Below are positions 48,416 to 52,370 of a stretch of 64,000 bases of DNA, one piece after another. Under the pieces are notes generated by a model, which had not been told where the DNA came from, did not search any database, and saw only the letters and a list, made by a program, of their open reading frames with translations. The first letter of the stretch is position 1. Every line of letters starts with the position of its first letter. The DNA comes from Candidatus Nomurabacteria bacterium (GTDB lineage: Bacteria; Patescibacteriota; Minisyncoccia; Phycocordibacterales; UBA9973): positions 3,907 through 67,906 of the forward strand of contig JADLEY010000009.1 in assembly GCA_020845875.1 (NCBI GenBank), written 5' to 3'. Position numbers and translations under genes: made by a program.

Positions 48416-48447
48416 ATGATAGCATGTATCTTATGATTCGTCAAGAG
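48416..48447 (-). promoter_or_regulatory. Promoter-core copy 1 (minus strand TTGACG-N17-TATCAT); the + strand carries the uvrC-start remnant ATGATTCGTCAAGAGAAATAA
   Basis: + strand 48431-48447 ttatgattcgtcaagag; −10 reverse complement at 48416-48421; −35 reverse complement at 48439-48444. Confidence 0.55.
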
Positions 48448-48451
48448 AAAT

Positions 48452-48485
48452 AAAAACTGCGTTAGGTCTTGCCTAACGCAGTTTT
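48452..48485 (-). terminator. Bidirectional hairpin terminator H1 (ctgcgttagg-tcttg-cctaacgcag) flanked by A5/T4
   Basis: 10-bp perfect stem. On the minus strand it is followed by ttttatttctc, and it ends the 49-aa TM-protein gene. Confidence 0.65.
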
Positions 48486-48555
48486 GCTTTGCTCTTTCTG
48501 TATCTGTATTTTTCAGCCAAATCGTATAAAGATTGGCACAACAACATAACAAGCG

Positions 48556-48705
48556 TCACGAGCAGCCAAAAATATATCCTGATAGGATTGCTAACAGCGG
48601 ATTTACAGAGATAGCCGCGATAGCACAAATGACGCAAGTGATTGGCCAAATACAGAATAGGTAACCCGCAAAGACGAATACTTTTACAAAGTTATACCAT
48701 TTCAT
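48556..48705 (-). CDS. Hypothetical 49-aa Cys-rich two-TM micro-protein (not in the ORF track because it is under 60 aa)
   Basis: Hand-translated MKWYNFVKVFVFAGYLFCIWPITCVICAIAAISVNPLLAILSGYIFGCS. Bracketed by promoter copy 2 and terminator H1. Confidence 0.35.
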   Translation of the reverse strand: MKWYNFVKVFVFAGYLFCIWPITCVICAIAAISVNPLLAILSGYIFGCS

Positions 48706-48722
48706 TTTTTAAGTTTTGTGAT

Positions 48723-48754
48723 ACTATACTGCCTATATTATGATTCGTCAAGAT
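48723..48754 (-). promoter_or_regulatory. Promoter-core copy 2 (minus strand TTGACG-N17-TATAGT)
   Basis: + strand 48738-48754 ttatgattcgtcaagat; −10 reverse complement 48723-48728. Confidence 0.5.
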
Positions 48755-48800
48755 TTAAAAAAACTCTTACCTTACGTCCTCTTGCAAATCAAAAACCTGA

Positions 48801-48836
48801 TATACTCAAACTATGCTATCGCGCAAAATGAGTATA
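48801..48836. repeat. 36-bp palindrome copy U (TATACTCA-aactatGCTATCGCgcaaaa-TGAGTATA) overlapping the start codon(s) of the wHTH::Cas2-like gene
   Basis: Perfect 8-bp outer inverted arms. A second direct copy is at 49338-49373. Confidence 0.6.
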
Positions 48837-49778: not shown

Positions 49779-49795
49779 GTAAGAAACAAAACCAT

Positions 49796-51124
49796 TTGTA
49801 CATGACACAATCAAACACTCTCGCGTCGGTGTCGACGCAGCCCGTATCTCCTAAAAAGGAGAAAGAGTACGGGCAAAAGACGGTGAAGTTCTATGTAACT
49901 CCCAGTCTCCATACCGAGCGCGTGCTCTGGTATATCTCGCACCTGCACAAGCGGGTGTGGAATCATATGCAGGCCATCTGTCAAGGCGACTTCGGTCACA
50001 TTGACACAGTGCTGGATAAGGTAAATCTAAAAGGGCAGGAAGAAATCCAGAAGTTAAAAGACTTCAAAGAAAGTATGCCCCCCATTGAGAAAACCTTTGA
50101 TTATGCTGGTGGAGCATCAACAACAGTATCCATCAAGCCGACCCGTCCGATTTCAGAATTCGGCATGCTCTATGCACTTGGCCCTATTCGCAATGCTGAC
50201 CCAGAGCTTTTGCAACTGCCACTCAACGACTTACAAAAGCCGTGTCGTGTGCTTGCAAAGAGCTGGAAGTCATTCTTTGAGCTCAACAAGCGTGGCGACA
50301 CCGAAGCTCGTCCGCCGAGGATGAAAAACGATTTGTTTTTCTTTACTTTGCAATGGGAAAAGCCGAAAGTAGTAAGATACGGTACCGACACTGTACTTCT
50401 CGTTAACCACAAGATTAACGGAATTGAAGGTATCGGTATTACGTTGCCACTATATGTGAGCAATCTGCTTTCTGAAAAAAGTACACGGTATGTAACCATT
50501 AAGCGCACATTCCCATTTTGGGACAGGCGTTCAAAGTTTGAGGTGAACATTGTGTATGAGACAGAGCGAGTGGAGACGCTTCCTATTGATGCTCATACAA
50601 AGTATGCAGGAGTAGATTTAGGAGCTCGGAGAATCATTCTCATACAGGATGGTATGGTGAAAACGTGGCATCTCGAAAAATGGGATCAATACTTCACCAA
50701 GCAACGCCAAGCTATCGAAGCCCGCATGGCCACCAAGATCAAAGGCTCTCGTGCACATGTTGCACTCTTTGATGCCCGTACCAAGCTTTCTAAAAAGTGG
50801 GCGGATAAGCAAAAGGATGCACAGCGCAAGATTGCCTATGAGATGGTCCAATTTGCCGATGTATTTTTTGTAGGCGAAACTACGATTCGTCTCGGGCTTG
50901 CAAAGTCTGAAAAAGGCTCAAAAGGCCAGCATCGTGCCGTGCAAAACACCGGCAATCTTGCACGCTTTGTCCGATTTTTGAAAGAAAAAGCGATTGAGCG
51001 CGGCAAGCAAGTGATTGAGGTTCCTGATTTTATTTCTGATGGAGACAAAACCATACGGAAAGTGGAGTCAGCGGTGCGTCATCTGGAGTACGGATTGGCA
51101 GAACAAAAGAAGAATGAACGATAA
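49796..51124 (+). CDS. Miniature TnpB/Cas12f-like RuvC nuclease (~440 aa), the candidate CRISPR effector, lacking the zinc-finger module. The ORF-track start is a TTG codon; an ATG lies two codons downstream.
   Basis: RuvC-I 'YAGVDLGARRI'. The inter-motif helix plus RuvC-II 'KGSRAHVALFDARTKLSKKWADKQKDAQRKIAYEMVQFADVFFVGE' is collinear with IS200/605 TnpB. 'LAKS…FVRFLKEKAIERGKQVIEVPD' and then 'SDGDKTIRKVESAVRHLEYGL' correspond to TnpB 'LAKS…VIKID-[CxxC…CxxC]-DRDINAAINIL..GL'. The last 80 aa contain no Cys. The gene is adjacent to cas1 and a CRISPR array. Confidence 0.6.
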   Translation: MYMTQSNTLASVSTQPVSPKKEKEYGQKTVKFYVTPSLHTERVLWYISHLHKRVWNHMQAICQGDFGHIDTVLDKVNLKGQEEIQKLKDFKESMPPIEKTFDYAGGASTTVSIKPTRPISEFGMLYALGPIRNADPELLQLPLNDLQKPCRVLAKSWKSFFELNKRGDTEARPPRMKNDLFFFTLQWEKPKVVRYGTDTVLLVNHKINGIEGIGITLPLYVSNLLSEKSTRYVTIKRTFPFWDRRSKFEVNIVYETERVETLPIDAHTKYAGVDLGARRIILIQDGMVKTWHLEKWDQYFTKQRQAIEARMATKIKGSRAHVALFDARTKLSKKWADKQKDAQRKIAYEMVQFADVFFVGETTIRLGLAKSEKGSKGQHRAVQNTGNLARFVRFLKEKAIERGKQVIEVPDFISDGDKTIRKVESAVRHLEYGLAEQKKNER

Positions 51125-51130
51125 CGATAA

Positions 51131-51158
51131 GCCTCGCAGTACTGCGAGGCTTTTTTGT
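51131..51158 (+). terminator. Strong rho-independent terminator between the nuclease gene and cas1
   Basis: gcctcgcag-ta-ctgcgaggc followed by tttttt. Confidence 0.75.
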
Positions 51159-51172
51159 GTTAGGATACGAAT

Positions 51173-51904
51173 ATGAATGCGAAATGGCTTGAGCATCTTC
51201 TAGAATACCGCGTCTCTGAGCATCGTGTTGTGGCTCTGCAGACACTTCTGCGAGAAAAGATTGCACGGCAAGCCACTGCTGCACGTCGGTACAAGAAACA
51301 ATTTGTTCCGCCGAAAGTATTGCAGGAGACAAATGAAAAGAAATTACTTCTCATTGAAGCGCGCTATGCACGCATGTACTGGAGCGCATTTGCTCGAGCA
51401 CTTCCGAAGTGGTGCGCATGGAAGGGGAGGGTGCCGCACGGTACTGATGTTGCAAACAAATTGCTTGATATCGGGTATCATACACTCTCGCTTATTCTTC
51501 AAAAGAAGTGTGAAGCACTCAATATACCGACTGAGGTTGGACTCCTTCACAGAGCACAGTCGGCAAAAGCGCATCCGCTTGTCTATGATCTCATGGAACC
51601 ATTTCGAGTGCATGTAGTAGATGAAGTACTCATGACCTTTTTCCATATGAAAAAGCATCCGATTGTGCAAGTAGATCAGATAATAGTACAAGAATTTTTG
51701 CATGAGGTGTATGCGATACTACATCGGCAGTACTATCACCGTGAGCGCCGTGTTTGTATCAGTTTTTCTTATTGGATTGATCTTGTTTTGCTCGGACTTC
51801 GAGGAGCAGTATCTGGCCAGCGTAAGTTTAAGCCACTTTGGACACCACTGCGCCACGAAACTCGGTGTAATAGAAAACCTCCGACTACAATGTCGGAGGT
51901 CTAA
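51173..51904 (+). CDS. cas1: CRISPR-associated Cas1 integrase, catalytic alpha-helical domain only (N-terminal beta-sandwich domain absent)
   Basis: LLDIGYHTLSLIL…LHRAQSAKAHPLVYDLMEPFRVHVVDEVL is the canonical Cas1 core. Catalytic E(62)/H/D are present. An in-frame stop 4 codons upstream of the ATG precludes any N-terminal extension. Confidence 0.85.
   Translation: MNAKWLEHLLEYRVSEHRVVALQTLLREKIARQATAARRYKKQFVPPKVLQETNEKKLLLIEARYARMYWSAFARALPKWCAWKGRVPHGTDVANKLLDIGYHTLSLILQKKCEALNIPTEVGLLHRAQSAKAHPLVYDLMEPFRVHVVDEVLMTFFHMKKHPIVQVDQIIVQEFLHEVYAILHRQYYHRERRVCISFSYWIDLVLLGLRGAVSGQRKFKPLWTPLRHETRCNRKPPTTMSEV
51872..51899 (-). terminator. Minus-strand hairpin terminator (cctccgac-tacaat-gtcggagg + T-tract) at the array's leader-distal end, inside the cas1 3' coding region
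   Basis: Perfect 8-bp stem preceded on the + strand by gaaaa, which is ttttc on the minus strand. Confidence 0.5.
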
Positions 51905-52154
51905 ATAAAATAATGCAGTTTCTTTAGTGGAGGTTTTGGGTCGCCGACGCCGGGGTCCCGTATTTCACGGTGCGTACCCAACCACCCAATCTCTTTAATG
52001 GAGGTTTTGGGTAAGCGTGCCCTGACTGCCCGTGATGAGCTGTGTGTACCCAACCACCCAATCTCTTTAATGGAGGTTTTGGGTTTCCTCTGGAACAGTA
52101 CAAGAAATAATGACAGTACCCAACCACCCAATCTCTTTAATGGAGGTTTTGGGT
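51903..52154 (-). CRISPR. CRISPR array: 4 repeats × 39 bp (gtacccaaccacccaatctctttaatggaggttttgggt) and 3 spacers (32/33/31 bp). The cas1-proximal repeat is degenerate. The array is inferred to be transcribed on the minus strand from the uvrC-side leader.
   Basis: Repeats at 51903-51941 (degenerate 5' half), 51974-52012, 52046-52084 and 52116-52154. Repeat termini are self-complementary (acccaa…ttgggt). Spacers are 51942-51973, 52013-52045 and 52085-52115. Confidence 0.85.
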
Positions 52155-52338
52155 ATAAAAAGGTGGTTTTTCCTGCGTAAAGCAGGCTTCATCTGACAGT
52201 TTTTGCTGTCAGCGGCCGGGGTACTCGGCAAATGCTCTTTCAAGAGCTGCATATTTTGTAATCTGAGAAAAATAGCTTTTTCCCTATAAAATAGGGGGTA
52301 TTTTTCTCATCTCTAGTAAAAGAACTGCTATATGTGCT

Positions 52339-52370
52339 ATGATAGCACATGCTATATGATTCGTCAAGAT
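52339..52370 (-). promoter_or_regulatory. Promoter-core copy 4 (minus strand TTGACG-N17-TATCAT), the putative CRISPR leader promoter. Its −35 overlaps uvrC codons 2-4 and its −10 lies in a 9-1-9 palindrome, atgtgctat-g-atagcacat.
   Basis: + strand 52355-52370 tatgattcgtcaagat; −35 reverse complement 52362-52367; −10 reverse complement 52339-52344. Confidence 0.5.

Follow-up and report, generated by a model that had tools for sequence, protein, structure and literature searches.

A putative bidirectional promoter joined to the start of uvrC is repeated at the boundaries of stacked accessory units in a Nomurabacteria genome

The window analysed here is a stretch of 64,000 nucleotides (nt) from Candidatus Nomurabacteria bacterium (assembly GCA_020845875.1, contig JADLEY010000009.1, positions 3,907 to 67,906). 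Between nth and the repair gene uvrC it carries an island of small genes and a clustered regularly interspaced short palindromic repeat (CRISPR) module, in which one short sequence occurs four times. We consider it likely, with a probability of roughly 60%, that these are four copies of one 37–41-bp element, a bidirectional sigma-70 promoter that ends in the first ~14–17 nt of uvrC.

The repeated sequence is the 16-mer TTATGATTCGTCAAGA. Three copies, at 48431, 48738 and 49717, are exact, and the fourth, at 52354–52369, differs in one base (an A in first position). No other site in the 64 kb lies within two mismatches, only 0.08 matches are expected from shuffled sequence, and none of 100 shuffles reached four; the 13-mer core TTGACGAATCATA also has no further near match (at most one mismatch) within the window. 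The likeness of the copies spans 37 nt, starting at 48410, 48717, 49696 and 52333, with 78% identity between copies 1 and 4 over this length and 75% between copies 1 and 2 across 59 nt. An earlier note on this DNA had pointed to four copies within 4 kb and to an extended ~37-bp resemblance of copies 1 and 4, and both observations hold. What it overlooked is that the motif, read on the plus strand as tt ATG ATT CGT CAA GA, contains a start codon, and that uvrC is annotated as starting in copy 4 (ATG at 52356, MIRQD; MIRQDLNKYKLPDAPGVYFW). The source annotation of the Joint Genome Institute (JGI) calls the 399-amino-acid UvrC from exactly this ATG. Copies 1–3 are uvrC pseudo-starts that read MIRQEK and a stop, MIRQDLKKLLP... 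and MIRQD and a stop, respectively, copy 2 keeping an N-terminus of 11 UvrC-like residues. In the pseudo-starts of the window and of two related loci described below, L062 and L148, 13–23 nt of uvrC coding sequence are exact and up to ~35 nt recognisable. The duplicated promoter cassette proposed in the earlier note therefore stands in so far as common descent of the four copies, by duplication and not by convergence, is supported by their sequence. The repeated unit, however, appears to be a promoter together with the first 5–12 uvrC codons and not a promoter alone, and it is not merely a promoter cassette because one copy in L062, copy B, has neither a −10 nor a leftward gene.

Each copy matches, in its predicted elements, the canonical layout of a bidirectional sigma-70 promoter. 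According to PMC10268837, which cites Warman 2021, −11A and −7T pair reciprocally between the strands in the canonical bacterial form. Here the −10 hexamers of the plus and minus strands are offset by 1 nt in 4/4 copies, and the predicted transcription start sites (TSSs) are 18 bp apart. A consensus scan of the minus strand gave TTGACG, a spacer of 16/17 nt and TATCAT, TATAGT, TATTAT and TATCAT in copies 1–4 (10/12 each), the −35 TTGACG being made from codons 3–4 of uvrC. The leftward open reading frames (ORFs) of 78, 49 and 77 amino acids, referred to as p78, p49 and p77, begin 17–18 nt past the −10, with predicted TSSs ~10 nt before the ATG. These hexamers and TSS positions are as the earlier note had described them, and a leftward sigma-70 promoter in each copy is plausible and is backed by the comparisons with relatives set out below. 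In the other direction the first codons of the leftward gene overlap a rightward −35 that is weak, or else an extended −10 (TGn), and the predicted plus-strand TSS is only ~5–6 nt 5′ of the uvrC ATG. An RpoD-type protein with regions 1.1, 1.2, 2, 3 and 4 is encoded in the window at 28715–30046. The view that every module ends in the same outward-firing promoter was thus right about position, as the copies do lie at module boundaries, but each copy would be bidirectional, firing leftward into its own module and rightward into the next module or uvrC.

To place this layout in the family we used uvrC loci from 80 related genomes (Paceibacterota, "Nomurabacteria") whose UvrC proteins are 46–69% identical. 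At least 13 relatives have a small leftward ORF whose start is 33–35 nt away from the ATG of uvrC, and copies 1–3 of the window have the same geometry (the start of p49 lies 34 nt from the pseudo-ATG of copy 2). The 24 leftward ORFs at uvrC-type junctions fall into 21 families with just three homologous pairs, and the slot in front of uvrC is hypervariable. Comparison of these loci shows a shared design ancestral in the family, predicted to consist usually of one small variable leftward gene plus uvrC.

The start of uvrC is also conserved at the nucleotide level. Identical 14–16 nt open uvrC in ~30 island-free species whose UvrC is 58–69% identical to that of the window. Of the loci retrieved, 23 have the 14-mer precisely where uvrC starts and others have it with at most 1–3 mismatches, and in 1.9 Mb of related loci it occurs at uvrC starts and island copies only. 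The claim of the earlier note that the motif is island-specific rather than generic consequently applies only within the 64-kb window, where there is no other near match, and falls in the relatives, where the motif is the conserved 5′ end of uvrC in species that have no island. Codon 3 is CGT in 30/31 species, where 8.2 are expected from the codon usage of each genome, and codon 4 is CAA in 31/31, where 15.9 are expected. This excess over codon-usage expectation indicates selection on the nucleotides CGTCAA, the complement of TTGACG; codons 3–4 are apparently frozen at synonymous sites by their double use as a divergent −35. An extended −10 (TGnTAnnnT) is found 11–12 nt 5′ of the uvrC ATG in nearly all relatives and is the predicted uvrC promoter, which would yield a near-leaderless mRNA.

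The start of nth serves as a natural control. In relatives nth begins with ATG ACN AGT CAA at 11 of the 14 loci with a close leftward gene and at none of the 5 without one (Fisher p = 0.005), and AGTCAA places TTGACT as far from a −10 as TTGACG lies in uvrC. This supports a leftward −35 as the role of these codons, with a second predicted −35 embedded in codons 3–4 of nth. AGTCAA-type nth starts with a divergent small gene were seen at L005, L009, L010, L015, L024, L026, L049 and L064. At L018 (7950–7989) nth itself opens with a uvrC-type promoter and ATGAATCGTCAAGATTTAG, so that two elements bracket nth.

In the window the copies bound four stacked units, namely p78; p49; a PaaX/Cas2-like gene (Cas2L) with p77; and an effector with Cas1, a CRISPR array and its leader. 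Viewed on the minus strand these form tandem minimal transcription units, each running from −35 to terminator U-tract. Each unit looks like a whole nth–uvrC intergenic region, stacked head to tail, since the hairpins at the boundaries resemble the 3′ terminator of nth.

Five architectures were found at this one junction, in the window, L062, L148, L149 and L027. L062 comes from another species (UvrC 66% identical to that of the window) and holds an orthologous island with the order nth, a leftward 83-amino-acid gene, copy A, Cas2L, a hairpin, copy B, effector, Cas1, CRISPR array with leader, and copy C at uvrC; copies A and B contain 20–23 nt of exact and ~27–29 nt of recognisable uvrC coding sequence. 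L148 and L149, found through a homologue of p77, come from the organisms most closely related to that of the window, with ~80% of nucleotides identical across uvrA and nth. L149 runs from nth through p83 (p77-like, leftward), a copy, a terminator and an unrelated leftward 77-amino-acid gene to a copy at uvrC, while L148 has nth, p83, a copy, Cas2L, a terminator, p84 (leftward), a copy, a terminator, p73 (leftward) and a copy at uvrC. The p77-type gene is therefore in position 1, next to nth, in L148 and L149 and in position 3 in the window. The junction of ATGATTCGTCAAG with (G/T)AAATAA(A/G)AAA and the hairpin GCGYTAGG..CCTARCGC is common to three unrelated genes (window copy 1/T1, L149 and L148). 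In L027 Cas2L and a leftward gene of 111 amino acids stand between a degenerate copy, GTGATTTGTCAAGT, and uvrC, and in L030, a relative of L027, merely 31 nt separate the degenerate copy and uvrC. The comparison of island structure among relatives that the earlier note had suggested thus revealed genomes with fewer and with differing modules. Its proposal of serial insertion is partly right, in that stacked units are bounded by copies and the stacks differ in L062, L148, L149 and L027.

Further comparisons bear on how such stacks arise. L148 contains a 48-nt perfect direct repeat around 1.26 kb. Between L148 and L149 (reverse-complement coordinates 1–6298 versus 7529–12252) identity falls from 99.94% on the left side of the first copy to 95.8% on the right side of the last, most differences lying in the first ~100 UvrC residues; this pattern points to a recombination tract from the first motif copy to ~300 nt inside uvrC. 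At an unrelated locus, L140, a module of homologous effector, 6-repeat CRISPR and leader (no cas1) is flanked by an 87-nt direct repeat (9818–9904 and 12046–12132, 92% identical), which is the 3′ end of the adjoining minus-strand metallophosphatase gene. ARAGORN called no tRNA beside this module, and a tRNA-like sequence with a long insert is present just upstream at ~9455–9705. What might be a degenerate remnant of uvrC where the L140 module ends on the right (24/35 matches by eye, AT-rich) was too weak and was not used. No module-less variants of the window species were found; L002, L003, L144, L146 and L147, from four other sequencing runs, have the same arrangement over the parts they cover. 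The large uvrA–nth gaps of relatives contained no repeated copies of the nth-type start.

We propose that the ancestral junction in front of uvrC had one pseudo-symmetric −10 that served both strands and drove a small leftward gene as well as uvrC. In this lineage DNA would have been added repeatedly at the junction, with a fresh copy of the promoter and uvrC start between blocks, and each new copy would keep uvrC expressed and give each block a leftward promoter. The copies would now serve p78, p49, p77 and a leader resembling a trans-activating CRISPR RNA (tracrRNA), with its CRISPR array, on the left, and on the right would read towards Cas2L, possibly the effector operon, and uvrC. The route is the least certain part. 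It was most probably recombination in the promoter/uvrC-start segment, through an unequal crossover or through a single, Campbell-type crossover with DNA that was circular or foreign, and it would have been followed by homologous exchange between strains via the flanks and by trimming to a functional minimum. We regard homology-driven recombination as somewhat more likely than site-specific recombination; the L148/L149 tract, the 48-nt repeat of L148 and the L140 repeat fit crossover integration, and they fit site-specific integration almost equally well.

Several points weigh against this account and the promoter assignment beneath it. CGTCAA is kept in L005, L024 and L064, which have no leftward gene and no usable leftward −10, and besides a leftward −35 another constraint may act, for example a regulator or the need to translate a near-leaderless mRNA. 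The conservation and nth statistics were computed with phylogeny ignored, and use of the promoter in either direction is deduced from sequence. p49 is not called as a gene by JGI, so that its coding status is putative, and the array-bearing genomes found number five, all of them metagenome-assembled genomes or metagenome contigs. An invariant 15–16-bp core with diverged arms is also how attachment (att) sites look, and the 87-nt repeat of L140, at an unrelated locus, cannot be accounted for by recombination via uvrC homology.

An unlikely alternative is that the 16-mer is the core of an att site at which integrase-less elements accreted in tandem through a trans-acting recombinase (tyrosine, serine, or conceivably the Cas1 of the island), each element bringing the end of the target gene and restoring the gene. 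Every boundary does have an invariant 15–16-bp core in direct orientation with arms diverged on both sides. The core is, however, equally invariant in ~30 insert-free genomes, where the start codon and −35 explain its constancy, and hosts do not conserve empty att sites. The junction after GTCAAG (±1) recurs in three unrelated units from three genomes, and every copy in four of the loci (window, L062, L148, L149) has an exact run of 13–23 nt that matches the restored host-gene end; yet the extent of the repeat varies from 13 to 87 nt, and breakpoints fall inside units (the 3′ ends of p77 and p83, with the terminator excluded) and inside uvrC (L148 versus L149), so that exchange is not confined to the core. 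A target at the end of a conserved gene, together with the L140 87-nt copy of another gene's 3′ end, is classic integrative-element design, and the 48-nt perfect repeat of L148 suggests a recent event. Against this, the 18-mer is on no phage or viral contig, and an integrase was found neither among the island ORFs, all of which were scanned, nor in 30 further window ORFs between 63 and 43317 (19733–26647, 43948–44388 and the part beyond 54.5 kb were left unscanned); the JGI Pfam annotations beyond 54.5 kb, up to ~61.5 kb, likewise include no integrase.

Integron attC sites are imperfect hairpins of at least 57 nt with R and L boxes and a crossover after the G of GTTRRRY. An attC reading of the island hairpins (GTTAGGT/GCCTAAC in T1) was rejected; they are short, 31-nt, near-perfect terminator stems with A/T tracts, and GTTAGG/CCTAAC in T1 arises from the stem only, with GCTAGG, GCTGGG and others in the other copies. 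The units are not promoterless cassettes, as each has its own promoter copy. The integron-like pattern suggested in the earlier note fails on integrase, attC and promoterless cassettes. It is doubtful, though conceivable, that the 5′ end of uvrC in Paceibacteria/Nomurabacteria is the docking site of an integrase-poor cassette-capture system that uses an unrecognised site-specific activity directed at the promoter/start core (perhaps the half-size Cas1 or a host recombinase); if so, self-contained promoter–gene–terminator units, a nuclease-dead Cas12f CRISPR module among them, would be inserted and shuffled by it, and the system would be a functional integron analogue in genome-reduced bacteria. 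Inspection by eye for a dif/Xer-like site gave a 7/11 match to the XerD arm and no XerC arm.

A further, improbable explanation is that ATGATTCGTCAAGA is mainly an operator (for example of a DNA-damage or Cas2L-type repressor) or a 5′ translation signal of the near-leaderless uvrC mRNA and not a −35, in which case its copies would subject the CRISPR leader and the genes of the island to the same type of control as uvrC. It would accommodate the synonymous conservation at the three loci that have neither a leftward gene nor a usable leftward −10, and the closeness of the predicted plus-strand TSS to the ATG suits it, but the spacing to the −10 is exactly 16–17 nt in every copy. In copy 4 and in copy C of L062 the −10 is overlaid by the palindrome GTGCTAT(G/AG)(A)TAGCAC, which has a half-site in common with the Cas2L palindromes, whereas the 14-mer itself is not palindromic. 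In nth only GTCAA is present, at equal distance from the −10 and with other flanks and another amino acid, which suits a −35 better. That the copies are a generic strong-promoter motif, or convergent, and irrelevant to the building of the island is very hard to credit: TTGAC-type −35 elements with similar flanks (TCTTGACAAAT) do occur at other leftward promoters (L027, L030 and L140), but the window has no other near match and the relatives none away from uvrC starts and island copies, the spacer and flanks are shared and not the hexamers alone, and the copies hold uvrC coding remnants, one of them with no −10.

Table 1. Features of the region from nth to uvrC, in window coordinates.
Feature	Position	Strand	Evidence and remarks
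nth (endonuclease III), left anchor	47481..48137	+	Pfam HhH-GPD 5e-27; synteny uvrA-nth-uvrC-ddl in relatives
T0, bidirectional terminator hairpin	48120..48150	.	overlaps nth stop (last nth codons enter hairpin); 68% like T1, T2
p78, unit adjoining nth	48161..48397	-	ORF, called by JGI
Copy 1	48410..48446	.	putative bidirectional promoter and pseudo-start ATG 48433; predicted leftward promoter for p78
T1, bidirectional terminator hairpin	48452..48482	.	abuts copy 1; junction type recurs in L148, L149
p49, small membrane-like ORF, sole gene of 307-bp unit	48556..48705	-	ORF prediction
Copy 2	48717..48753	.	putative promoter and pseudo-start ATG 48740; leftward p49, rightward towards Cas2L
37-nt palindrome, first copy	48800..48836	.	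over Cas2L start; similar pairs flank homologues elsewhere
Cas2L, PaaX-like with Cas2-like domain	48813..49334	+	PaaX_M 7.5e-13, Cas2 5.8e-5; TIGR01573 cas2, PaaX
37-nt palindrome, second copy	49337..49373	.	directly after Cas2L stop
T2, terminator hairpin	49410..49440	.	81% identical to T1; orthologues after Cas2L in L062, L148
p77, small acidic protein	49452..49685	-	ORF; 76% identical homologue adjoins nth in L148, L149
Copy 3	49696..49732	.	putative promoter (TGtTATAAT) and pseudo-start ATG 49719; leftward p77
Predicted effector-operon promoter, TTGACA-16-TATAAT	49750..49777	+	12/12 consensus
Cas12f/TnpB-like effector, 440 amino acids	49802..51124	+	NCBIfam guided_TnpB 9e-22 (below its cutoff); PADLOC Cas12_x1 V-F 7e-30
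Cas1, 243 amino acids	51173..51904	+	Cas_Cas1 9e-22, profile 126-253 of 283; TIGR00287 116-327 of 327
Hairpin CCTCCGAC..GTCGGAGG, then TTTTC	51872..51900	-	within 3′ end of cas1; compensatory variants L146/L147, L062
CRISPR array	51916..52154	-	three full 39-nt repeats and one degenerate repeat at cas1 end
Structured leader, candidate tracrRNA-like scaffold	52155..52332	-	conserved in L062, L140; 8/28 pairs compensatory
Copy 4	52333..52369	.	putative symmetric promoter GTGCTATGATAGCAC and real uvrC start; leftward CRISPR leader, rightward uvrC
uvrC (399 amino acids), right anchor	52356..53555	+	GIY-YIG, UVR, UvrC_RNaseH; TIGR00194 2.5e-80

Among the genes of the first three units (Table 1), p78 is an ORFan with no homologues among 5.8 billion proteins. 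A metagenome scan with Cas2L gave 56 loci, in which the homologues mostly stand alone with flanking palindromes and no uvrC motif. The Cas2L palindromes have the form ATATACTCA..GTGCTATCGCAC..TGAGTATA, and exact repeats of 14–22 nt flank the Cas2L homologue in 6 of the 24 metagenome contigs tested (L102, L104–L106, L108 and L109), on which no CRISPR was found nearby. With its two palindromes Cas2L may regulate itself through a pair of operators, or the whole may be a very small mobile unit. The sequence TAAAAAACT was considered as a target-site duplication on either side of the window's Cas2L unit, but L148 did not reproduce it and the idea was dropped. The −10 of copy 4 sits inside the perfect palindrome GTGCTATGATAGCAC (52334–52348), which has a counterpart, GTGCTATAGTAGCAC, at 5760–5774 of L062; it has the half-site GTGCTAT in common with the Cas2L palindromes and may be a candidate operator on the joint CRISPR-leader/uvrC promoter. 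A search of 47500–53000 against Rfam gave chance matches below threshold only. Elsewhere in the window (63–1592, 16971–19577, 7653–8513 and 4482–5138) there are two Peptidase_S74 (endosialidase chaperone) proteins, along with a further HhH-GPD glycosylase gene and another gene of the sigma-70 family.

The effector of the fourth unit belongs to a family with six members among 5.8 billion proteins. A phmmer search of the effector against PDB sequences gave no match, and only the family profile reached TnpB, aligning to ISDra2 TnpB as far as residue ~321 of 408. The 33 effector residues that follow the aligned part contain no Cys pairs and no RuvC-III motif or Asp, and the protein ends where the TnpB zinc finger begins. 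As in type V-F systems it lies beside a CRISPR array, but it has neither a complete RuvC triad nor the zinc-finger (TNB) insertion, and the effector is probably nuclease-dead. PMC13472631 describes dCas12f proteins with a truncated C-terminus that are linked to CRISPR. The candidate adaptation genes are a half-size Cas1, which is the C-terminal catalytic half only with the N-terminal domain absent, and the PaaX-type Cas2-like gene, whose homologues mostly have no link to CRISPR. The spacer adjoining cas1 (51942–51973) differs in L146 and L147, which are the same species from other samples, and the array therefore turns over between strains. Turnover is judged from this spacer difference; contig breaks inside the array were not read as a sign of heterogeneity, since repeats by themselves interrupt assemblies of short reads.

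The array is most likely transcribed leftward from copy 4, since the degenerate repeat lies on the cas1 side, the leader is conserved together with its putative promoter, spacers vary between strains, the orientation in L152 agrees, and there is a minus-strand hairpin at 51872–51900, which is the probable terminator of the leftward CRISPR transcript. In L152 (1–190; effector 69% identical) the array is 5′ of the effector and co-directional with it, its repeats are oriented as on the minus strand of the window, and its end has a degenerate repeat, a hairpin and a T-tract (terminator); this position upstream of the effector means that the internal order of the module is not fixed. The predicted leader promoter, including A(A/G)TCTTGAC(G/A)AAT, is conserved in L062 and L140 as well, and the leader probably doubles as a tracrRNA-like scaffold. 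The suggestion that copy 4 drives the leader is therefore sustained to the extent that the copy stands on the leader side of a leftward array with a conserved putative promoter.

The closest known design is the bidirectional promoter of Warman et al. 2021, which, as PMC10268837 and PMC12825309 summarise it, has the same 1-nt offset of the −10 elements, an 18-bp TSS spacing and mRNAs both ways. Here, by comparison, the first codons of the two divergent genes enclose both −35 regions, and only 33–35 nt separate the ATGs of these genes. Across the family the −35-forming codons of uvrC are synonymously frozen, and the element is repeated four times together with a gene start. As for the stacking, integrative and integrase-less elements of the Streptococcus ICESt1/CIME (cis-mobilizable element) type reportedly accrete in tandem, the att site lying within one end of a conserved gene. 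The island resembles CIME arrays in its tandem modules, direct repeats of a host-gene end, distally restored gene, strain-variable content and recombinase-free modules. It differs in that the promoter and 5′ end of the gene are involved and not the 3′ end, the modules are 0.3–2.6 kb, the extent of the repeat is variable, breakpoints fall beyond the core, and no recombinase was found in the island or the scanned window ORFs. As in integrons, small units that mostly hold a single gene and vary between strains gather at a fixed chromosomal site, and their boundaries, one of them a hairpin, are conserved; unlike in integrons, there is no IntI or attC, the hairpins are 31-nt intrinsic terminators, each unit has its own promoter and terminator, and the units point away from uvrC instead of being read from a common promoter (Pc). 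The effector resembles the truncated dCas12f proteins of PMC13472631 in being Cas12f/TnpB-like, stopping before the zinc finger and RuvC-III, and standing beside a CRISPR array with a PaaX-aligning neighbour, but here it occurs in Patescibacteria, with a half-size Cas1 and strain-variable spacers, in a module bounded by duplicated gene ends.

The locus illustrates how regulation can be fitted into coding sequence in the streamlined genome of one of the ultra-small Patescibacteria, with the codons of a repair gene apparently doubling as a divergent −35. RNA polymerase occupies a bidirectional promoter in one orientation at a time (PMC12825309), so that the output of the CRISPR leader and of uvrC would be coupled. 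The ~40-bp element would at the same time be a seam at which accessory DNA, including small ORFan genes, the PaaX/Cas2-like gene and a type V CRISPR module that is miniature and probably nuclease-dead, is stacked and swapped between strains. If a specific recombination activity uses this seam, it would be a new way to build cassette arrays without an integron integrase.

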